64,000 nucleotides of DNA from Escherichia coli. GTDB lineage: Bacteria > Pseudomonadota > Gammaproteobacteria > Enterobacterales > Enterobacteriaceae. The translations under genes and the position numbers were made by a program. The stretch lies in NCBI RefSeq assembly GCF_013315695.1, contig NZ_CP054353.1. One strand, 5' to 3'. Positions 25,906-56,516 of the stretch are shown one piece after another (positions within the stretch are counted from its first letter, which is position 1; every line of letters starts with the position of its first letter). The notes under the pieces were generated by a model, which did not search any database, had not been told where the DNA came from, and saw only the letters and a program-made list of their open reading frames with translations.

Positions 25906-28713
25906 GTTTCCACTGGTCAGGCTACCCCGCAGCAGGTCTGCTTTGCGGCGGGCGCGTTCAGTGGTTTCACTGATTCTCTGTGCGTGCTCTGCGTCACGGA
26001 TGGCGTGCAGCATGTCAGAAAGCACGGTAACAGGGGTTTTCATGGTGTTCTGGTCCTGCTGAAGTGTGGATGCCAGGCGTGCGGCGGCTTCGGGGTCTGA
26101 TGCCCCCAGCTGTTCCAGATAGCTGGCGACCGGGTTATGGCGGATCTCCGTGCTGCTTACGCCGTGATTACGGCTCAGGCGCTGCCAGAGCTGCGTGATT
26201 CGGCTGTCCGGGCGGGTATCCGGTTTGCGTACAATTTCAAATCCCTGCGGTGCAATGATGCTGCCGTCAACGTACAGACTGCCGCCCCGTAACAGGTGCT
26301 GCATCTGCTGTTCACCAATATGCAGGCCGAGAGATTCAGCAGACTCCCGCCATTCTTTTGCGAGTAACTCGTGGTTATCAGGCAAAGGCTGTGGCTGTTT
26401 GCGGCTCTGTGTCCAGCTCTGCATTTCATAACTGCTGTTTTTGGCCTGTTTGTCACGCAGCGAACGCATCAGCGCCCGGCGTTCGTGCCGTTTCAGTGAG
26501 CGCATCCATTCATTCACTTCAATTTCAATGCCGTCAGGAAGCTGCGGCCACTGTGCTGGCCGTTCTTCCGGCTGTTCTGTCCCGTTGTTGTCCGTTTCCT
26601 GTACACGGGGACAGTTATTGCCACGAGTCCAAGGGGCGGCAGGGCCGCCCTGAAGGTCAAAACCATTTTCGCGGGCGCTGTCTTCCGCTTCCGGTTTGCG
26701 TCTTACCAGCTTCCAGTTATCCGGATGCGTGCATACGCGGGAAGACTCCCCAATGAGCGGCGACCAGATCCCGTAAATCTGTACGCTCTGTTCACCGTAA
26801 TCGTTCAGCTCATCTGCGAGGTCGTAGGCGGTGCGAATCAGGTAGTCTTTGCGTGGAACAAGTACGCCACCCTGTTTCTCAATGTAGGTGGCAAAACATC
26901 CGGCATCAGCGGCAGCGAGTACCGCGTCCATTGCGTCATCCTTCAGCCGTTGCGGGCCTTCCGGGTTGCGTGCCATCTGGCTGGCAAGGCGGCGCAGTTC
27001 ACGCCACACCTGACGGGAGGGGATACCAAAGAACTGGAACTGGCGGACCCGGTGAAGGCGCGCCCAGCCGATGGCGCGTTCCACGCTCTCGGCCATTGAT
27101 TTTCCGGTTTCGTGGTCAACGCGTGGCTTGCCCGTTTTCGGGTCGATGCCATCCACGGCGCGGCTGTCCAGGTTCTTTCCGATGTAGGTGGCGATGTAGC
27201 TGGTTGGTGTGCCTTTTGAGCCGTCTACGTACTCCGCCTTAAAACGCGGAGTTATGTCATCGCCCAGCTCGTGGCGGTCTTCCTGAATGGCAATATCGCA
27301 GACGTGGGACACGATGGTTTCAATCTCGTCCTGATGTGCAAAGACCATCATATGCCAGTGCACAGTGCCGTCATGGTGAGGCTCCACCGTGCGGATGCCA
27401 TACCAGCGCAGACCGTCGCGGTTCAGTTTTTTGCGGACCGCCGCAAAAAACGTGTTAACCAGGTAATCGCTGGAGTCGCGCATGGTGGCCCCGTTCCATT
27501 TGGGATTCGGATGACCGTTCTCCGTTGTTGCGTGGTATTTTGACGGGCAGGTGACAGTCAGAAACACCGCTCTGTCGCCACGGGCTTCGGCCAGAAGTTC
27601 CAGTCCCTTCATGGTGGCCATCATTTCTGCCTTACGGTGAACCGGGTTACTTACTCCCGCGTAATACACTGTCTCGAGATCAATCGTGAACCCGTCTTCG
27701 TTTTCCAGCATGAAACTTTTCAGGAAATCGCGTGTTTTCTCGCGCTGTGCGCGAAACTCGCTTAACGCGTCCTGGCTCAGATAGGGTGATGTTTTTCTGG
27801 AAACCAGACAGGCGGCGCGGAGTTGTTCTTCTCTCCACTCGCAACGTAACAGCCACAGTTTGCGTTTCCACCATTCCGCACAGGTCAGGCGAAGGATTGC
27901 GCCCGGCAGCAGCTCCGTGTCCGGTTCGTTCCTCCGGTCTTTGTCTGTTGTCAGTGCGTCATAATGTGGAGGCATGGCGTGCAGGTGTAACGCCATGCGG
28001 GCCAGCATCTGATACGCCTTCAGCGTTACATCCATGGTCAGTTCGCCATCAGTCGCACCAAAGCCATCGCAGAGTTTTTCGAAGGTGCTGCTGAACATCG
28101 CCGCCGTCATGGTGGCCAGCGTCTGTATCTGGTGTTTGTTGAGCTGCGGCAGGTAAAGCAAATCGTCCAGGCGTTCGCGTCCGGCAAGGGAGCGATAACC
28201 CGGTGTCAGCCAGCGGTGATCGGTGCGGTCCAGGCGTTCGAATATTTTGCGCAGGGTTCCGCGCGCGTAGCGTTCAGCCTGCCAGCTCTTTTTGCCTTTC
28301 TGGCGATCGGCTTCCTGTTTTTTGCGCAGGAAAGAGAGGTGGCGGCTCAGAGGTTCACGCAGATAAACGGGAAGCACCTTCAGTGTGGCAAAAGCACGGG
28401 CCACCGGGTCTTGTTCTGTTGCCTGACGCTTGCTGATGATGCTTTGTGCCAGCTTTTCACGCTGTCCGGCTTCCTCAAGGGATGCCATGAGTTTTTTACC
28501 CACGGTGGATTGTGCGAAAAAGGCTTCCTCCTTCGCTTCCTGTTCTTCCAGAGCCTTTTTGTCTGCCTCAAGGTAGTAACGGATGGCGCGTTGTAGGTCG
28601 GTTTCAGTTTCCTGCCTGTGCTCCGTAAATCTGGCCGGATCAATGGCTGGCCGTGGTTCATTCCAGCTCCATGCAAACTCACTCATGGCTGGTATCCCGT
28701 CACGCGCTGCCAC
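25840..28713 (-). CDS. A: Rolling-circle replication initiator A
   Basis: Contains HUH-like VHWHMMVF and a YIATYIGKN Tyr-containing motif; position as P2 gene A; true start may be the ATG at 28686. Confidence 0.85.
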   Translation of the reverse strand: MAARDGIPAMSEFAWSWNEPRPAIDPARFTEHRQETETDLQRAIRYYLEADKKALEEQEAKEEAFFAQSTVGKKLMASLEEAGQREKLAQSIISKRQATEQDPVARAFATLKVLPVYLREPLSRHLSFLRKKQEADRQKGKKSWQAERYARGTLRKIFERLDRTDHRWLTPGYRSLAGRERLDDLLYLPQLNKHQIQTLATMTAAMFSSTFEKLCDGFGATDGELTMDVTLKAYQMLARMALHLHAMPPHYDALTTDKDRRNEPDTELLPGAILRLTCAEWWKRKLWLLRCEWREEQLRAACLVSRKTSPYLSQDALSEFRAQREKTRDFLKSFMLENEDGFTIDLETVYYAGVSNPVHRKAEMMATMKGLELLAEARGDRAVFLTVTCPSKYHATTENGHPNPKWNGATMRDSSDYLVNTFFAAVRKKLNRDGLRWYGIRTVEPHHDGTVHWHMMVFAHQDEIETIVSHVCDIAIQEDRHELGDDITPRFKAEYVDGSKGTPTSYIATYIGKNLDSRAVDGIDPKTGKPRVDHETGKSMAESVERAIGWARLHRVRQFQFFGIPSRQVWRELRRLASQMARNPEGPQRLKDDAMDAVLAAADAGCFATYIEKQGGVLVPRKDYLIRTAYDLADELNDYGEQSVQIYGIWSPLIGESSRVCTHPDNWKLVRRKPEAEDSARENGFDLQGGPAAPWTRGNNCPRVQETDNNGTEQPEERPAQWPQLPDGIEIEVNEWMRSLKRHERRALMRSLRDKQAKNSSYEMQSWTQSRKQPQPLPDNHELLAKEWRESAESLGLHIGEQQMQHLLRGGSLYVDGSIIAPQGFEIVRKPDTRPDSRITQLWQRLSRNHGVSSTEIRHNPVASYLEQLGASDPEAAARLASTLQQDQNTMKTPVTVLSDMLHAIRDAEHAQRISETTERARRKADLLRGSLTSGNKKQTETGFTNPVNEQKTCRDI

Positions 28714-29375: not shown

Positions 29376-29697
29376 GGTGTGGCCTCTTTGCTCGGTGATA
29401 GAAATAGCTCACCATCCAGAGTTGAGAATCTCGGGGTGGCGAGACGTACAGGGTTCTCAACACCGGAGAGCAAAGAATCCGGCCCGACCGAAGTCGGCCC
29501 CGTACGTCCCGCCATAATTCTGACGCGAAAAAGACGTGGCAATACAGTACGCACAAAAAAACCGCTGGCGCGGTTATGCGCTTTGCTCTGTATCGGGTTG
29601 AGAATCCCGGCACCCGTTTTATGAGGTGCAGCGGAAATGTAACCTGACCGATTGCGGCATGGCAAGCGGTTTTTTTGTGTGTGCATGTTCTGGTTTC

Positions 29698-32377: not shown

Positions 32378-32686
32378 ATGCTTATCGGTGAAAAAATTAG
32401 AGTGATTCGTGAATCAGAGGATTTAACGCGCGAAGAATTTTGCGGCCTGATTGATGTGCCTATCGGCACTTTGCGTCGTTATGAAACGGGGCGGATTGAA
32501 AACATAGGGGGCGAAGTGCTTATCAAGATTGTTAATCACCCTCGCTTTTTTAAGTACATGAATTGGCTTATGACGGGAAAAACAAATGAGGCTGCTGGGC
32601 AGATCAGTCCGTCTCTCTCCCCTGATGGGCCAAAAAGCACATCGCCTTCTCAAAAACCCCGCAAGACTGGCACACAGCCCGGCTAA
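32378..32686 (+). CDS. C: Immunity repressor C
   Basis: MLIGEKIRVIRESEDLTREEF...GTLRRYETGR...HPRFFKYMNWLMTGK resembles P2 C repressor. Confidence 0.7.
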   Translation: MLIGEKIRVIRESEDLTREEFCGLIDVPIGTLRRYETGRIENIGGEVLIKIVNHPRFFKYMNWLMTGKTNEAAGQISPSLSPDGPKSTSPSQKPRKTGTQPG

Positions 32687-32735
32687 TCATGGAGCGCTGG
32701 GGGCATGGTGGTCTTGTAACGCTGGGGTTTCACGA

Positions 32736-33710
32736 ATGAGCATAAAATCAATTCCGGGAGGATATCTTCTTGACATGCGCCCGGAGGGGCGTAAAGGCAA
32801 ACGCATTCGTAAAAAATTTAAAACGAAATCGGATGCAGTTTTATATGAGCGGTGGGTGCTGGCGCAACAGCATAACAATGAGTGGAAAGGAAACTCCATT
32901 GATCGCCGTCCGCTGTCAGTGCTTATTGACTTGTGGTGGAAATACCACGGTCAGCTAATGAAGTCAGGGCATAACACGCGCCTTAAATTGCTGCGCTTGA
33001 GTGAGGCAATGGATGACCCGTGCGTGCATAAACTTAATACAACGATGCTCACCGAGCTACGTGTGTCCAGGATAGAGCAGGGGATACAGCCCAGCACCAT
33101 AAATCGAGAGATTGGGGCGTTAAGCGCGATGTTTACCGCACTCATCTCATCCGGCCATTTTCTTAACGATAACCCCGTTCAAGGCCTTAAAGGAATGAAG
33201 GTTAACGAGCGCGAAATGGGATATCTGAGTAAGTCTGAATGTGTTCAGTTGCTGGATGCACTGGCTGAAAATCCCGATGAACGGCTGGCTGTCGAAATCC
33301 TTCTGTCGACCGGGGCGCGATGGGGCGAGGTAGCGGCACTGGAGCAGCGCCGTGTTCTTCATTGTCGAATCACTTTTTCAAAAACGAAGAACAGCAAAAA
33401 CCGTACCGTTCCTATTTCTGAAAGCCTGTTTGAAAAGATCAAAAAACGGGGCGGGAAACTGGTGTTTCCGACGCTGGATTATCCATTGGTTCGCGATGTC
33501 ATCAAAACGGTCGCACCTGATGTTCCTGACGGCCAGGCTGTTCATGCGCTGCGCCACACCTTCGCCAGTCATTTCATGATGAACGGCGGCAATATTCTGA
33601 CGCTCCAGAAAATTCTGGGGCACGCAAAGATTCAGACAACGATGATTTATGCCCATCTTGCGCCGGATTACTTGCAGGATGCGGTGAGATTTAATCCTAT
33701 TGCTGGGTAA
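32736..33710 (+). CDS. int: Tyrosine integrase
   Basis: ...LSTGARWGEVAAL...HALRHTFASHFMMNGGNILTLQKILGHAKIQTTMIYAHLAPDYLQDAV closely resembles P2 Int. Confidence 0.9.
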   Translation: MSIKSIPGGYLLDMRPEGRKGKRIRKKFKTKSDAVLYERWVLAQQHNNEWKGNSIDRRPLSVLIDLWWKYHGQLMKSGHNTRLKLLRLSEAMDDPCVHKLNTTMLTELRVSRIEQGIQPSTINREIGALSAMFTALISSGHFLNDNPVQGLKGMKVNEREMGYLSKSECVQLLDALAENPDERLAVEILLSTGARWGEVAALEQRRVLHCRITFSKTKNSKNRTVPISESLFEKIKKRGGKLVFPTLDYPLVRDVIKTVAPDVPDGQAVHALRHTFASHFMMNGGNILTLQKILGHAKIQTTMIYAHLAPDYLQDAVRFNPIAG

Positions 33711-36726: not shown

Positions 36727-37191
36727 ATGCGTTTCTGCCTTATTTTGATCACAGCACTGTTTCTGGCCGGGTGTAGCCACCATAAAGCACCGCCGCCAAA
36801 TGCCAGACTTTCTGATTCGATTACCGTTATTGCCGGTTTGAACGACCAGCTACAGAGCTGGCATGGCACGCCGTATCGTTATGGTGGCATGACGCGGCGC
36901 GGTGTGGACTGTTCGGGGTTTGTGGTTGTGACGATGCGCGATCGTTTCGATTTGCAGCTGCCCCGAGAAACCAAAGAACAAGCCTCTATCGGCACGCAAA
37001 TTGATAAAGACGAGTTGCTGCCTGGTGACCTGGTCTTTTTCAAAACGGGCTCCGGACAAAATGGTTTGCATGTAGGTATTTACGATACCAACAACCAATT
37101 TATCCACGCCTCTACCAGCAAGGGAGTGATGCGTTCCTCACTCGATAATGTTTATTGGCAGAAAAATTTCTGGCAGGCGAGACGAATCTAG
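36727..37191 (+). CDS. nlpC: NlpC/P60 lipoprotein
   Basis: Lipoprotein signal LFLAGCSHH; NlpC/P60 Cys motif DCSGFV; K-12 gene order. Confidence 0.9.
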   Translation: MRFCLILITALFLAGCSHHKAPPPNARLSDSITVIAGLNDQLQSWHGTPYRYGGMTRRGVDCSGFVVVTMRDRFDLQLPRETKEQASIGTQIDKDELLPGDLVFFKTGSGQNGLHVGIYDTNNQFIHASTSKGVMRSSLDNVYWQKNFWQARRI

Positions 37192-37437
37192 TATGTCGAA
37201 AAATTGACGGCGATGATACATCGCCGTCAATTTACTCCAGAATACAGTAGTATTTTGCAGACAAAAATTCCGTAAATGGATTATTCGTTTATAATCAGGA
37301 TAATCTAAAAAAAGGACCCCTGAAAAAGTGGTTAACATGGAACAAATGAAAGTTACTCCTTCTGTAATTGTTATGTCTTATGGCCTCATCCCTTTTAGCC
37401 GGATACTGAAAAACATCCTTCGAGAGGGACGGTTACC

Positions 37438-38106
37438 ATGAAGATTTTTTTGGAGAATCTTTATCATTCTGATTGCTATTTCCTGCCGATAAGAGATAAC
37501 CAGCAAGACCTTGTCGGCGTTGAGTTAATTACCCATTTCTCCAGTGAAGATGGTACGGTTCGTATACCGACGAGTCGGGTTATAGCGCAACTTACCGAGG
37601 AGCAACATTGGCAATTATTTTCTGAGCAGTTGGAATTGCTAAAATCATGCCAACACTTTTTTATTCAACATAAACTCTTTGCCTGGCTTAATTTAACCCC
37701 ACAAGTGGCTACTTTATTATTAGACAGGGATAATTACGCGGGCGAACTATTAAAATATCCGTTTATTGAACTGTTGATTAATGAGAATTACCCGCATCTC
37801 GATGAAGGAAAAGATAATCGCGATCTTTTGTCCTTATCGCAAATGTATCCCCTTGTGTTAGGTAATTTGGGCGCAGGCAATAGCACAATGAGAGCGGTTT
37901 TTGATGGTCTTTTCACCCGCGTCATGCTGGATAAAAGTTTTATTCAGCAACAAATCACGCATCGCTCCTTCGAACCGTTTATTCGTGCGATCCAGGCGCA
38001 AATTTCCCCATGTTGCAATTGCATCATCGCGGGGGGCATTGATACGCCAGAAATAATGGCACAGATTACCCCCTTTGATTTCCATGCTCTCCAGGGATGC
38101 CTGTAG
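37438..38106 (+). CDS. ydiV: Anti-FlhDC factor YdiV, ends at an in-frame TAG about 15 codons earlier than I recall for K-12
   Basis: MKIFLENLYHSDCYFLPIRDNQQ...; after TAG at 38104..38106 the same frame continues PAVPVNQITTLVQR then TAA. Confidence 0.85.
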   Translation: MKIFLENLYHSDCYFLPIRDNQQDLVGVELITHFSSEDGTVRIPTSRVIAQLTEEQHWQLFSEQLELLKSCQHFFIQHKLFAWLNLTPQVATLLLDRDNYAGELLKYPFIELLINENYPHLDEGKDNRDLLSLSQMYPLVLGNLGAGNSTMRAVFDGLFTRVMLDKSFIQQQITHRSFEPFIRAIQAQISPCCNCIIAGGIDTPEIMAQITPFDFHALQGCL

Positions 38107-38174
38107 CCTGCCGTTCCTGTAAATCAGATAACGACGTTGGTTCAGCGATAACCCTCCTGTTTGCTGGTGTTTAA

Positions 38175-39650
<1,476 letters not shown>

Positions 39651-44726: not shown

Positions 44727-44760
44727 AAAACCCGGCGGCGTTCAGTCGCCGGGTCCATTT
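44727..44760 (+). terminator. Terminator after ppsA
   Basis: A-run then CCCGGCGG-loop-CGCCGGG hairpin. Confidence 0.6.
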
Positions 44761-45205
44761 CTATATCCCCACCTTTTAACAACCTGCTTTGGGCAAACGC
44801 GCTCATGCAATATAAAAAGTTTCCGGACATCATCTGAATAATTGGCTGCTGTTCTTTCTGATTTTAATTTGTTTGCGATCCTCTCCACAGAATAATTCTC
44901 GATACCGTTTTTTCTCAAAGCCGAATGTGACCACACGTCAATTTCCTTAAGCATATGCGTAATTTTTTCGTCCAGAGTTCGTTGGATTGCACGAAGTCAC
45001 TGATGAGTCCCGTTTTTATACTATCTTCAACCACAGCATAAAAAGGGATATGGCCATGAAAAATTACCGCACCGTTATTCAGACATAAGCGCAGATTATG
45101 TAATTCAGAGAATTTATTCGAACTAAAACCGATTTTCTGATTTGTCTGGCTGTACAGAAAACAGGATAAATTCCCTCCGCGAGCGGTGGGAAACAGCTAC
45201 AGGGA

Positions 45206-46612
45206 TTGCATATGAGTTGCTATTTGAAAGTCCTGATTTGTGCGATTGTCGCACTCGCTATATGGTTTTTCCCCGTCCCCGACGGATTAACACCCTTAAC
45301 CTGGCACATTCTGGCCATATTTATCACCACTGTGGTGGCGTTTATTCTGCAACCGTTGCCGGTGGGCGCTATCGCGTTAATAGCCATCAGTTTTATTATG
45401 CTGACCGGTATGATGAAAACCAGCGAAGCCTTAAAAGGTTTCAGCAGCACGACGGTATGGCTTATTGTCGCCGCATTCCTGTACGCGAAAGGATTCATCA
45501 AAACGGGGTTGGGGCGGCGTATCGCCTATTTGCTGATTCGCGGATTTGGCGGCAGCTCGTTGCGTCTGGGTTATACATTGGCGCTAAGCGATATGATTAT
45601 CGCGCCCGCAACGCCATCAAACACAGCGCGAGCAGGAGGGATTTTGTTCCCGATTGTTCGCAGTGTCTCTAACAGCTTTGGATCTGAACCGGATCAAGGG
45701 CCGCGTAAAATAGGCGCTTATCTGATGCAGACGGTGTTCCATTCCAACTGCCTCTCATCCTCGATGTTTATGACGGCCAGCGCGCCAAATGCACTCATTG
45801 TATCTCTGGCGGCCAGCACTTTATTTGTCGATATCTCATGGGGGATGTGGACGCTAAGCGCACTGGTGCCGGGCATTATCGCTTTTATCACTATGCCGTT
45901 GGTCATTTACAAACTCTACCCGCCAGAGATCAAAAAGACGCCAGAAGCCAAAGCGTTGGCACAGGAAGAACTTATCAAAATGGGGCCGGTAACCCGTGAT
46001 GAGCGCGTGACGATTGGCATTTTCCTGCTTTCATTATTGGCCTGGAGTACATCGAAATGGACTGGCCTGGATGCGACGGCTGTTGCGCTTTCTGGCGTCT
46101 GTTTAATGTTGATGACCCGGATTATCACCTGGCAGGATGTGCAGTCAGAGAAGGGGGCCTGGGACATTCTGGTCTGGCTGGGAGTCATGATCTGTATGGC
46201 AGATAAGCTCAATCAGCTTGGCCTGTTCAAATGGTTTGCCGTCACAACCTCGGCGCTGTTCACCGGCATTCCGTGGGAGATAACGTTGACGGTGTTGCTG
46301 ATAGTTTACTGCTATTCCCACTATTTCTTTGCCGGAAGTACGCCGCATGTAGTGGCGATGTATGCCGCTTTTGGCAGCGTCTCGGTTGCTGCTGGCGCAC
46401 CGCCGATGATGGCGGCTCTGTCACTGGCGTTCGTCACTAACCTGATGAGCGGCATTTCGCATTATGGCAACGGACCCGCAGTGATCTATTACGGCGCTGG
46501 CTATGTCTCGCAACGAGAATGGTGGCGGCTGGGCTTTATCGTCATGTTGTTGAACATTGTCATCTGGTTCGGACTGGGGGCGGTGTGGTGGAAAATTCTT
46601 GGCCTGTGGTAA
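45206..46612 (+). CDS. Anion permease, DASS/SLC13-like (organic acid transporter candidate)
   Basis: 468-aa polytopic membrane protein with SNTARAGGI motif; not in the K-12 ppsA-fadK interval as I recall it. Confidence 0.65.
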   Translation: MHMSCYLKVLICAIVALAIWFFPVPDGLTPLTWHILAIFITTVVAFILQPLPVGAIALIAISFIMLTGMMKTSEALKGFSSTTVWLIVAAFLYAKGFIKTGLGRRIAYLLIRGFGGSSLRLGYTLALSDMIIAPATPSNTARAGGILFPIVRSVSNSFGSEPDQGPRKIGAYLMQTVFHSNCLSSSMFMTASAPNALIVSLAASTLFVDISWGMWTLSALVPGIIAFITMPLVIYKLYPPEIKKTPEAKALAQEELIKMGPVTRDERVTIGIFLLSLLAWSTSKWTGLDATAVALSGVCLMLMTRIITWQDVQSEKGAWDILVWLGVMICMADKLNQLGLFKWFAVTTSALFTGIPWEITLTVLLIVYCYSHYFFAGSTPHVVAMYAAFGSVSVAAGAPPMMAALSLAFVTNLMSGISHYGNGPAVIYYGAGYVSQREWWRLGFIVMLLNIVIWFGLGAVWWKILGLW

Positions 46613-46647
46613 GTGGCCTGCGACAAACATCAATCAAGGAATAGTGT

Positions 46648-47607
46648 ATGAACTTAAAAGATATTCAAGTGGCGATCGTCGGCAAACTAAGTGATCGCTT
46701 AATGGCTAAAGTTGAATCTACCTTCACCGCATATCGCCTGTGGGAACTGGCTGATGAAGGCGCTTTTTACACGCAAATCGCGCCGGATATTCAGGCGCTG
46801 GTGACCAGTGGTAATCCGGTAATGGGGGCTTCTCGGGCGCTAATAGAAAAATTTCCGAATCTGAAGATTATTGCCAGCAACGGTGTGGGTTATGACCCTA
46901 TTGATATCGTGGCAGCCAGGGAGCATGGCGTTATCGTCACCAACACACCTGGCGTGCTTAATGACTGTGTCGCAGACATTGGTATAGCGTTGTTACTCAA
47001 TGTTGCCCGACGTATTAACATTGCCGATCGTTATGTTCGTGACGGCCGTTGGCCAAACGAGGGGCGTTTCCCGATGGCGACGAAAGTGAGTGGCAAACGT
47101 TGCGGAATTGTCGGTCTGGGGAACATTGGTAACGCAGTAGCCCGCCGTGCAGCAGCATTTGAAATGGAAATTCACTATTTCGACCCAAAACCGCATAACA
47201 AACCTGATTGGACGGCGCATGATTCGTTGGTTTCTCTGGCGCAAGCGGTGGACTTCCTCGTTCTGACGCTGCCAGGCGGCGCGAGTACGCGCGGCGTTAT
47301 TGACAAAACGGTGCTGCAGGCTCTGGGGAAAACCGGGCATTTGATCAGTATTTCCCGGGGATCAGTGGTGAACGAAACCGATCTGATTGATGCTCTGCAA
47401 AATAACATTATTGCTGGTGCGGCACTGGACGTTTATGCCAACGAACCACATGTGCCAGAACAATTAATGTCGCTGGATAACGTTGTCCTTACGCCACATA
47501 TCGCCAGTGGTACGAGCGAAACGTTTAATGCGATGGCGGATTTGGTATTTGATAACTTACAGGCTTTCTTTAGCGGACAGCCAGTTATTACCCCTGTTAC
47601 TCAATAA
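46648..47607 (+). CDS. D-isomer-specific 2-hydroxyacid dehydrogenase
   Basis: NAD-binding GIVGLGNIGNAVARR and catalytic-region motifs typical of glyoxylate/hydroxypyruvate reductases. Confidence 0.8.
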   Translation: MNLKDIQVAIVGKLSDRLMAKVESTFTAYRLWELADEGAFYTQIAPDIQALVTSGNPVMGASRALIEKFPNLKIIASNGVGYDPIDIVAAREHGVIVTNTPGVLNDCVADIGIALLLNVARRINIADRYVRDGRWPNEGRFPMATKVSGKRCGIVGLGNIGNAVARRAAAFEMEIHYFDPKPHNKPDWTAHDSLVSLAQAVDFLVLTLPGGASTRGVIDKTVLQALGKTGHLISISRGSVVNETDLIDALQNNIIAGAALDVYANEPHVPEQLMSLDNVVLTPHIASGTSETFNAMADLVFDNLQAFFSGQPVITPVTQ

Positions 47608-47617
47608 GGCGGAAAAT

Positions 47618-48097
47618 ATGATTTATGGTGATATCGCGTATCTTAGTGAACAACAAAAGCGGACATTTCATCCTGTCATCACTCGTGTCATTGAGTATCT
47701 TTCACAACATGATCTGAATAGTCTTCCTGTGGGAGAGAAGGTTTTTATTCAGGATGACTCAATATTTTATACCGTGGTTGAACCGATGACTAAACCACTA
47801 CATGAATGTCGACCGGAAGTTCATCGTAAATATCTTGATGTCCATTTTTTAATTGCCGGAGAAGAGCGGATTTGTGTGGATTTTGATGATGGGGAAAACT
47901 CGGTTGTAGAAAGCCACCTGGGCGACCGTGATGTTATTTTTTATGCTGATGAACGTATTAATGATCGAATCATCACGCTGACACCAGGACAGTTTGTGGT
48001 GGTCTTTCCGGAAGAAGTGCATCGGGCATGCTATAAAATCGATAACGTGGAAAAAATCAAAAAAACAGTCGTGAAAATCGACATGAGTTTATTATAG
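47618..48097 (+). CDS. YhcH/YjgK/YiaL-family protein
   Basis: 159-aa ORF (start at MIYGDIAYL with AAGGCGGA RBS); C-terminal ...KKTVVKIDMSLL resembles family members. Confidence 0.65.
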   Translation: MIYGDIAYLSEQQKRTFHPVITRVIEYLSQHDLNSLPVGEKVFIQDDSIFYTVVEPMTKPLHECRPEVHRKYLDVHFLIAGEERICVDFDDGENSVVESHLGDRDVIFYADERINDRIITLTPGQFVVVFPEEVHRACYKIDNVEKIKKTVVKIDMSLL

Positions 48098-48109
48098 GCG
48101 GAGCTGGCT

Positions 48110-48853
48110 ATGACAAAAATTGCCCTGGTGACGGGGGGAAGTAAAGGCATCGGCTACGCAGCAGCAAAGGCACTCTATGACATTGGATATACAGTTATTG
48201 TTGCCGCGCGTAACGAAGAAACCTTACAGCAATGTGCACAAGGATTAGCCAAGGAACGCTTTATTCCTCTGGTTGCCGATGTCACGGATGAGTCCGCTGT
48301 CGTTGCGCTATTTGCCGAGATTAAGGCTCTTTTTGGTCGACTGGATCTCTTGTTCAATAATGCGGGCAATAATAGTCCGGCAAAAAGTATTGAAGAGGTT
48401 GAGTTTACTGAGTGGACGCGCGTGTTTAACGCCAATATTCATTCGACATTTTTGTGTTCGAAAGAGGCGATTAAAATCATGAAAGCGCAGCAGCCAATGG
48501 GAGGACGTATTATTAACAATGCGTCGATTTCTGCACTGACGCCGCGCCTCTATACTGCGCCATACACGGCGTCGAAACATGCTGTTACCGGGTTGACCAA
48601 GGCCATTTCCCTGGATTGTCGCAAATTTAATATCGCTTGCGGGCAAATTAATATCGGCAATGCGGAAACGACATTATCGAATCGGATGCGTAAGGGCGTT
48701 TATCAGGCAGATGGTGCTATTAAAGCGGAAGATATGATGAATGTTGCTGATGTTGCAGCGACCATTCAGATGATGGCTCAGTTGCCAGTAACCACGAATG
48801 TGCTGGAAATAACGATTATGGCAAATAATATGCCGTATGTCGGACGTGGTTAA
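48110..48853 (+). CDS. Short-chain dehydrogenase/reductase
   Basis: N-terminal TGGSKGIGYA Rossmann motif; YTASK catalytic motif. Confidence 0.8.
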   Translation: MTKIALVTGGSKGIGYAAAKALYDIGYTVIVAARNEETLQQCAQGLAKERFIPLVADVTDESAVVALFAEIKALFGRLDLLFNNAGNNSPAKSIEEVEFTEWTRVFNANIHSTFLCSKEAIKIMKAQQPMGGRIINNASISALTPRLYTAPYTASKHAVTGLTKAISLDCRKFNIACGQINIGNAETTLSNRMRKGVYQADGAIKAEDMMNVADVAATIQMMAQLPVTTNVLEITIMANNMPYVGRG

Positions 48854-48865
48854 TCGAGATTGAAT

Positions 48866-48897
48866 AAAGCACCTTGCGTGTAAGGTGCTTTATTATT
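48866..48897. terminator. Bidirectional hairpin terminator
   Basis: AAAGCACCTT-GCGTGTA-AGGTGCTTT flanked by A/T runs. Confidence 0.6.
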
Positions 48898-48903
48898 TAT
48901 GAC

Positions 48904-49120
48904 TTATGCCTCAACGCATGTTTGTTCCAGCCGTTGAAGAATATCTTTACGTAACAAAAATTTTTGTATTTTACCGGAGGCAGTGCGCGGTAGTTTTTCG
49001 ATTACCACGATATGTTCAGGATATTTATATTTCGCGACCCGTTTACGGCTAAAAAATGCCACTACATCTTCCAGCGATAATGAATGATGCGGTGCTTTCA
49101 GCACGACATAAGCGCATGAA
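48904..49120 (-). pseudogene. fadK: fadK 3' fragment, separated from the 5' part by IS1
   Basis: Encodes ...YVVLKAPHHSLSLEDVVAFFSRKRVAKYKYPEHIVVIEKLPRTASGKIQKF..., the acyl-CoA synthetase C-terminus. Confidence 0.85.
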
Positions 49121-49175
49121 GGTGATGCTGCCAACTTACTGATTTAGCGTATGATGGTGTTTTTGAGGTGCTCCA

Positions 49176-49451
49176 GTGGCTTCTGTTTCTATCAGCTGTC
49201 CCTCCTGTTCAGCTACTGACGGAGTGGTGCGTAACGGCAAAAGCACCGCCGGACATCAGCGCTATCTCTGCTCTCACTGCCGTAAAACATGGCAACTGCA
49301 GTTCACTTACACCGCTTCTCAACCCGGTACGCACCAGAAAATCATTGATATGGCCATGAATGGCGTTGGATGCCGGGCAACAGCCCGCATTATGGGCGTT
49401 GGCCTCAACACGATTTTACGTCACTTAAAAAACTCAGGCCGCAGTCGGTAA
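49176..49451 (+). CDS. insA: IS1 InsA
   Basis: [43 protein letters not shown]... Confidence 0.95.
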
Positions 49452-49873
49452 CCTCGCGCATACAGCCGGGCAGTGACGTCATCGTCTGCGCGGAAATGGA
49501 CGAACAGTGGGGCTATGTCGGGGCTAAATCGCGCCAGCGCTGGCTGTTTTACGCGTATGACAGGCTCCGGAAGACGGTTGTTGCGCACGTATTCGGTGAA
49601 CGCACTATGGCGACGCTGGGGCGTCTTATGAGCCTGCTGTCACCCTTTGACGTGGTGATATGGATGACGGATGGCTGGCCGCTGTATGAATCCCGCCTGA
49701 AGGGAAAGCTGCACGTAATCAGCAAGCGATATACGCAGCGAATTGAGCGGCATAACCTGAATCTGAGGCAGCACCTGGCACGGCTGGGACGGAAGTCGCT
49801 GTCGTTCTCAAAATCGGTGGAGCTGCATGACAAAGTCATCGGGCATTATCTGAACATAAAACACTATCAATAA
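49370..49873 (+). CDS. insB: IS1 InsB (normally expressed as InsAB' by frameshift)
   Basis: 167-aa ORF overlapping insA in another frame. Confidence 0.9.
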
Positions 49874-49888
49874 GTTGGAGTCATTACC

Positions 49889-55748: not shown

Positions 55749-55803
55749 GGTGATGCTGCCAACTTACTGATTTAGTGTATGATGGTGTTTTTGAGGTGCT
55801 CCA

Positions 55804-56079
55804 GTGGCTTCTGTTTCTATCAGCTGTCCCTCCTGTTCAGCTACTGACGGGGTGGTGCGTAACGGCAAAAGCACCGCCGGACATCAGCGCTATCTCTGCT
55901 CTCACTGCCGTAAAACATGGCAACTGCAGTTCACTTACACCGCTTCTCAACCCGGTACGCACCAGAAAATCATTGATATGGCCATGAATGGCGTTGGATG
56001 CCGGGCAACAGCCCGCATTATGGGCGTTGGCCTCAACACGATTTTACGTCACTTAAAAAACTCAGGCCGCAGTCGGTAA
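55804..56079 (+). CDS. insA: IS1 InsA
   Basis: Identical protein to insA of copy 1. Confidence 0.95.
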
Positions 56080-56501
56080 CCTCGCGCATACAGCCGGGCA
56101 GTGACGTCATCGTCTGCGCGGAAATGGACGAACAGTGGGGCTATGTCGGGGCTAAATCGCGCCAGCGCTGGCTGTTTTACGCGTATGACAGGCTCCGGAA
56201 GACGGTTGTTGCGCACGTATTCGGTGAACGCACTATGGCGACGCTGGGGCGTCTTATGAGCCTGCTGTCACCCTTTGACGTGGTGATATGGATGACGGAT
56301 GGCTGGCCGCTGTATGAATCCCGCCTGAAGGGAAAGCTGCACGTAATCAGCAAGCGATATACGCAGCGAATTGAGCGGCATAACCTGAATCTGAGGCAGC
56401 ACCTGGCACGGCTGGGACGGAAGTCGCTGTCGTTCTCAAAATCGGTGGAGCTGCATGACAAAGTCATCGGGCATTATCTGAACATAAAACACTATCAATA
56501 A
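55998..56501 (+). CDS. insB: IS1 InsB
   Basis: Identical protein to insB of copy 1. Confidence 0.9.
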
Positions 56502-56516
56502 GTTGGAGTCATTACC

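Follow-up and report, generated by a model that had tools for sequence, protein, structure and literature searches.

YdiV, currently named RflP, is an EAL-like protein that binds FlhD and, at high stoichiometry, opens the FlhD4C2 ring and abolishes its DNA binding (PMC3510510). In Salmonella, YdiV sequesters FlhDC and targets it for degradation (summarised in PMC7157525), and in pathogenic E. coli YdiV/RflP is the switch by which flagella are kept off both in liquid culture and within host cells (PMC7157525). Deletion of ydiV increases motility and FliC in CFT073 (PMC3484386), causes hypermotility in the ST131 strain EC958 (PMC5425062), and derepresses fliA and fliC in liquid culture in strain Z36 (PMC7157525). 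The K-12 gene is poorly translated and its deletion is without phenotype (PMC3484386, PMC5425062, PMC7157525). YdiV also relieves Fur repression via SlyD under iron limitation (PMC7515728). In the YdiV-FlhD complex, residues 51-233 were built by Li et al., and the FlhD-contact residues are F155, F168, H175, E179, F181, R183, A184 and Q188 (PMC3510510).

The ydiV locus and codon 223

How does the ydiV gene analysed here compare with these systems? Within the window, which is the whole 64-kb stretch of E. coli DNA that was analysed, the ORF list and translation place a truncated ydiV/rflP coding sequence at 37438..38106 on the plus strand, with 222 codons followed by TAG and a C-terminus reading ...FHALQGCL. 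It lies downstream of nlpC (36727-37191, from the ORF list) and upstream of an intact selO (ydiU; 38214..39650, plus strand, from the ORF list and annotation in relatives), and the annotated gene order nlpC-ydiV-selO is common to the window, LF82, MSB1_4I and K-12. By position, sequence identity, ELI motif and interface residues, the gene is identified as a bona fide ydiV/rflP orthologue, the only departure being that its chain ends at L222 and is not the complete chain of 236-237 amino acids. Residues 1-222 are approximately 96% identical to K-12 YdiV and to PDB 4ES4/3TLQ, with eight substitutions relative to K-12, and in a phmmer search the sequence read through the stop matches the characterised YdiV (PDB 3TLQ/4ES4) with E = 6.6e-157. 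The Pfam EAL model (PF00563, cut-off 31.3 bits) spans residues 13-222, ending four positions short of the profile end, and its score is hardly altered by the truncation (33.3 bits for the 222-aa chain and 33.8 bits for the full-length chain). The catalytic signature is degenerate, being ELI instead of EAL (GVELITHF at residues 26-33), and the ydiV of CFT073 has likewise been entered as 'ELIH' (PMC3484386). All eight FlhD-contact residues are kept in the truncated protein, including A184, which is listed as conserved, and so are the alpha6-alpha8 helices (residues 155-192) that form the FlhD interface.

The preliminary description of this DNA had ydiV ending at an in-frame TAG that replaced a tryptophan codon, and this was borne out. 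The TAG at 38104..38106 (plus strand) stands in place of Trp223, with the derived base A at 38105 where the ancestral base is G, and codon 223 is TGG in LF82, in the MSB1_4I ydiV and in K-12 MG1655 rflP. The reading that the reference gene also ends here is rejected: the K-12, LF82 and MSB1_4I genes all encode 237 amino acids, and the K-12 protein runs on to ...LQGCLWPAVPINQITTLVQR, as do the entries PDB 4ES4 and 3TLQ. Beyond the stop, the frame encodes PAVPVNQITTLVQR at 38107-38148 and then reaches TAA at 38149-38151, so that the orphaned and now untranslated 3' end of the gene (38107..38151, plus strand) consists of 14 sense codons and the original TAA. The earlier statement that the frame stays open for 14 more codons therefore stands, although its end coordinate of 38150 falls one base before the end of the TAA at 38151. 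Owing to the early stop, the untranslated gap between ydiV and selO has grown from 62 to 107 nt. A promoter and terminator scan found no terminator-like site on the plus strand of that gap, and together with an Rfam scan it detected neither an RNA family nor any promoter-like or terminator-like feature at or near the stop; no alternative RNA element therefore accounts for the site.

The region between nlpC and ydiV, which includes the ydiV 5' leader (37192..37437, plus strand), was compared with K-12 and LF82. The leader is identical to both from 37240 to the start codon, and the sequence therefore gives no clue to the level of ydiV translation. This region also contains an upstream ORF of 37 codons (37328-37441, plus strand; MVNMEQMKVTPSVIVMSYGLIPFSRILKNILREGRLP), the TGA of which shares bases with the start codon of ydiV (ATGA). 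K-12 and LF82 have the same sequence for this ORF, and no convincing ribosome-binding site was seen for it. The upstream ORF might bear on the poor translation of ydiV known in K-12.

Reality, rarity and age of the allele

One reading is that the base at 38105 is a mistake, the true base being G; in its favour, none of the 5,280 matching complete RefSeq genomes was a 100% match to a 61-bp TAG probe. The 61-bp probe alone leaves possible carriers that have a second SNP, and a 33-bp TAG probe was therefore used, on which any 28-mer seed has to include the TAG; the K-12 haplotype shares the first 28 bases of this probe and is thus also covered. By megablast, the 33-bp probe had zero matches among 5,426 complete E. 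coli genomes. Against an error, however, stands a look-up in NCBI, ENA and Logan, in which exactly the same 222-aa protein was found to be already public (WP_174183231.1, QKM91144.1, HAH6023185.1 and MEG9612687.1), always with the label 'anti-FlhDC factor' and in one case on a 5.17-Mb contig. Public contigs that encode it number 22 and derive from independent samples, both isolate read sets and assemblies of gut or other metagenomes, the sources including ERR8574652, ERZ28586735, ERR4229482, SRR25445764, SRR8428005, ERR12454647, SRR15832845, ERZ1748944 and ERZ19666002. Nine loci from separate samples (L004-L012) were compared with the window by blastn: they are 99.93-100% identical to it, all nine have A at the site, and wherever the contig is long enough they share the same junction of prophage, integrase and btuC. 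Since nine independently assembled loci carry the same A, the comparison effectively excludes a one-off sequencing error and shows that the carriers belong to one circulating clone. The reading as a sequencing or assembly error, which the preliminary description had named as a possible refutation, is accordingly rejected on the protein look-up, contig retrieval and blastn results, and we regard it as extremely improbable. By the probe counts, the W223* allele is rare among complete E. coli genomes. A 31-mer search of JGI metagenomes returned 0 contigs with TAG and 7 with the TGG control, a denominator too small to inform. The allele has thus been deposited in public protein databases yet is without discussion in the literature that we searched, in which we found no paper on W223* or on any experiment with a C-terminal truncation of YdiV.

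The age of the change can be judged from its nearest relatives. Aligned with E. coli LF82 over 1001 bp, the window shows a single difference, the G->A at 38105 that converts TGG to TAG. Residues 1-222 are identical to the widespread 237-aa allele WP_001330300.1, which LF82, MSB1_4I and GPEC1186 share with many others. Among complete genomes, the closest are OZ547117.1 and MSB1_4I, the latter an Australian isolate from a rectal swab. Over the 29.8 kb from 34223 to 64000, the window departs from MSB1_4I by two SNPs (38105 and 48569) and one extra IS1 (49121-49888), and by nothing more. Because there are so few differences, the amber change is, on this comparison, a derived and very recent G:C->A:T transition, and as a single derived substitution it raises no issue of chance. 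The orphaned tail is base for base the same as in the intact genes of MSB1_4I and LF82, and a search for further decay (extra stops or frameshifts) in the gene and its tail, relative to the genomes encoding WP_001330300.1, found none; there has therefore been no decay since the stop arose. This absence of decay fits a very recent event and says nothing either way on function. The most economical account would be a spontaneous and recent G->A at 38105 that turned the Trp223 codon of ydiV/rflP into an amber codon in one E. coli clone, the carrier being a close relative of MSB1_4I with a P2-family prophage beside btuC. An in-frame stop at a position that is a sense codon in the intact orthologues, and that is absent from the nearest relatives, marks W223* as an apparently young truncation allele.

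Could the stop be read through? A suppressor tRNA, or leaky termination at UAG-C, would still allow full-length YdiV to be made in useful quantity. Neither the 14 codons beyond the stop nor the original TAA is damaged, and the base after the stop is C; in E. coli, UAG followed by C terminates comparatively weakly. When no suppressor is present, basal readthrough is of the order of a percent or less. The undamaged tail is, however, explained by the youth of the mutation, no tRNA gene was found within the 64-kb window, and two other genes of the window, btuC and ppsR, end normally at TAG. Furthermore, the stop is confined to one clone, whereas the sister genomes and 25 orthologues encode Trp at this codon, and it is therefore not a conserved recoding site. 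A functional contribution of readthrough is very unlikely, and the caveat that the strain might suppress amber codons, attached to the original observation, is without support.

Several other features distinguish the surroundings of ydiV. The left half of the window (1-34222) is filled by a P2-family prophage with tail, capsid and terminase genes, a gpA replication endonuclease gene (25840-28713, minus strand) and an integrase gene (32586-33710, plus strand). On the right, the prophage meets the chromosome within the terminator hairpin of ihfA (GGCCGCTCTGCGGCC), immediately upstream of btuC, and the left junction lies beyond the window. The prophage is absent from this position, left of btuC, in MSB1_4I, and no complete E. 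coli genome matches it at more than approximately 95% identity over most of its length. In its early region (minus strand, 29432-29629), Rfam places a C4 antisense RNA (29432-29519, 79 bits) beside isrK (29555-29629, 63 bits), and this pair adjoins a gene with a product matching the Pfam family 'Derepression' (PF25738). The region looks like a P1-type antisense-RNA/antirepressor immunity module within a P2-like prophage.

To the right of selO, a four-gene insert (44755-48939) between ppsA and fadK is shared with MSB1_4I and is not present in LF82; it encodes an anion permease, a 2-hydroxyacid dehydrogenase, a YhcH/YjgK/YiaL-family protein and an SDR oxidoreductase. The SNP at 48569, which is G in the window and T in MSB1_4I, lies within the SDR-family oxidoreductase gene. 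The IS1 at 49121-49888, which has a target duplication of 9 bp (GCGCATGAA), interrupts fadK near codon 475 of 546 and is absent from MSB1_4I; because of this insertion, fadK is probably inactivated in this clone. A second IS1 (55749-56516, target duplication TCAACGGCG) splits ydiP, which encodes an AraC-family regulator. The ydiP insertion is common to MSB1_4I, where RefSeq labels both halves as partial pseudogenes.

The lost C-terminal segment and YdiV function

The preliminary description proposed that the stop takes about 15 residues off the end of the anti-FlhDC factor and may alter flagellar regulation; comparison with the 237-aa K-12 protein confirms a loss of 15 residues. To judge the importance of the lost segment, we considered an alignment of 25 orthologues (41-100% identity) from Escherichia, Citrobacter, Salmonella, Yokenella, Intestinirhabdus, Buttiauxella and others. 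Just 24 columns are invariant, W223 and P224 being two of them, the tail is conserved as WPAVxxxQITTLVQR, and nearly every protein has a length of exactly 237 aa. W223-P224 stands at the end of the last EAL signature motif, QG-x-L-aromatic. A profile search against the PDB places W223 opposite the aromatic residue ending this signature in RocR (QGYLF), BifA (QGYLY) and STM1697 (QGTLF), and in STM1697 and BifA the aligned segment runs past that aromatic to the profile end, across the region of the terminal helix. The AlphaFold model of the full-length protein (mean pLDDT 90, with 93 and 83 in the last two blocks) has a strand at 217-219, a short bridge at 226-227 and a helix at 228-234. It matches 3TLQ with a TM score of 0.90-0.92 over 235 columns, so that the tail is ordered in the crystal. 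What the stop removes is the final conserved aromatic-proline pair and the terminal helix (~228-234) that closes the EAL-like, TIM-like barrel.

The 222-aa chain is predicted by AlphaFold to adopt the same fold, with the mean pLDDT falling from 90.0 to 87.6, the number of residues at pLDDT >=90 from 154 to 103, and the N-terminal block from 83 to 73. AlphaFold is not a stability predictor, and this drop might at most hint at packing of the tail on the N-terminal segment, with which it would fit.

Does the truncation matter to the cell? It could be near-neutral, either by virtue of a 222-aa protein that folds, binds FlhD and represses, or by ydiV being barely expressed, and W223* would then be a harmless polymorphism drifting in one clone. 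The intact interface helices and contact residues, the Pfam score, the predicted fold and the presence of the clone in many samples are all in keeping with this, as is the leader, which is identical to that of K-12. Since the K-12 gene is poorly translated and without a deletion phenotype, and the leader here is the same, the lesion could be phenotypically silent. However, the invariance of W223-P224 and the conservation of both the tail and the 237-aa length across genera, down to 41% identity, argue that the tail is needed. W223 is the counterpart of a conserved core aromatic of the EAL fold, and the tail is ordered in crystals, which also speaks against neutrality. We consider a near-neutral truncation possible but the less likely outcome. 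The persistence of the clone in many samples fits neutrality as well as advantage.

A loss or clear reduction of YdiV function is the reading that we favour, and we consider it probable given the conserved and structured nature of the lost segment. A barrel that lacks its closing helix and a core aromatic is likely to lose stability or to misfold, and for that reason a weakened or null YdiV seems the most probable outcome. Ribosomes terminate at the TAG and release a 222-aa YdiV that keeps the FlhD-binding helices (155-192). Lacking W223-P224 and the terminal helix, this anti-FlhD4C2 factor would most likely be destabilised, reduced in activity or null. Less FlhD4C2 would in that case be sequestered and less of it passed on to ClpXP, with derepression of the class II and III flagellar genes under those conditions in which the parent strain expresses YdiV. 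The relief of Fur repression under iron limitation might also weaken. The predicted phenotype is thus greater flagellar expression in liquid culture or within the host, and possibly a blunted induction of iron uptake. Since the lost segment is conserved and structured, in part invariant, and since deletion of ydiV makes non-K-12 strains hypermotile, altered flagellar regulation is plausible; a motility consequence of W223* is, by analogy with those deletions, likewise plausible.

An adaptive separation of function can also be imagined, in which FlhD binding through alpha6-alpha8 is kept, a tail-dependent activity is lost, and the allele has been selected. Such an activity might be, for instance, the delivery of FlhD4C2 to ClpXP, the insertion of YdiV into the FlhD4C2 ring, or an interaction with SlyD/Fur. 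If true, motility or iron uptake would have been retuned in a gut-resident, human-associated clone. The retention of the FlhD interface is part of what it supposes, nothing points to it, and we think it improbable.

If YdiV is instead simply crippled in this clone, as we favour, more flagellin would be expected, which would affect motility, TLR5 recognition and possibly siderophore uptake. W223* also provides a natural minimal test of the need for the conserved C-terminal helix in an EAL-like fold, a need that no published YdiV experiment we found addresses. Otherwise, it is an ordinary strain-level nonsense polymorphism.

Comparison with known systems and other ydiV lesions

Among the homologues retrieved were many clusters of truncated or frameshifted E. 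coli YdiV. One example is the complete genome CP024278.1, in which an IS1 is inserted at about codon 178 of ydiV. A run of six G residues in ydiV (G6, 38032-38037, codons 198-200) is G8 in GCA_965179245.1, which shifts the frame near codon 200, and this frameshift corresponds to a cluster (P0025) of 463 member sequences. From these sequences ydiV seems to have been disrupted repeatedly in E. coli, with the count possibly inflated by long-read homopolymer errors or assembly artefacts. Published cases are ydiV E116*, reported in a mutant selected with cefiderocol (PMC11513634), and an early stop codon in ydiV of Salmonella Saintpaul (PMC8731237). Like W223*, these other lesions are specific to their lineages and disrupt the same motility repressor, which is non-essential. 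Of the lesions compared, W223* lies farthest downstream in the gene, sparing approximately 94% of the protein and the whole FlhD interface, and loss of function is therefore less certain for it than for the others.

The paralogous Salmonella protein STM1697 (PDB 5HXG) is an EAL-like FlhD4C2 inhibitor with the same fold, and its tail, QGTLFPSVALEEIETLL, aligns with QGCLWPAVPVNQITTLV. It is encoded by a different gene, is 28% identical and is full length; the homologous tail in STM1697 makes the tail a family feature. The closest comparison is with WP_001330300.1, in which residues 1-222 and the DNA of the orphaned tail are the same, a single base making the difference between TGG and TAG at codon 223. 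The best characterised counterpart is the K-12 RflP/YdiV (b1707; PDB 3TLQ and 4ES4), which shares the locus, the ELI signature and all of the FlhD-contact residues with the protein encoded in the window. The K-12 protein has 237 amino acids, whereas the protein encoded in the window has 222 and is without W223-P224 and the terminal helix.
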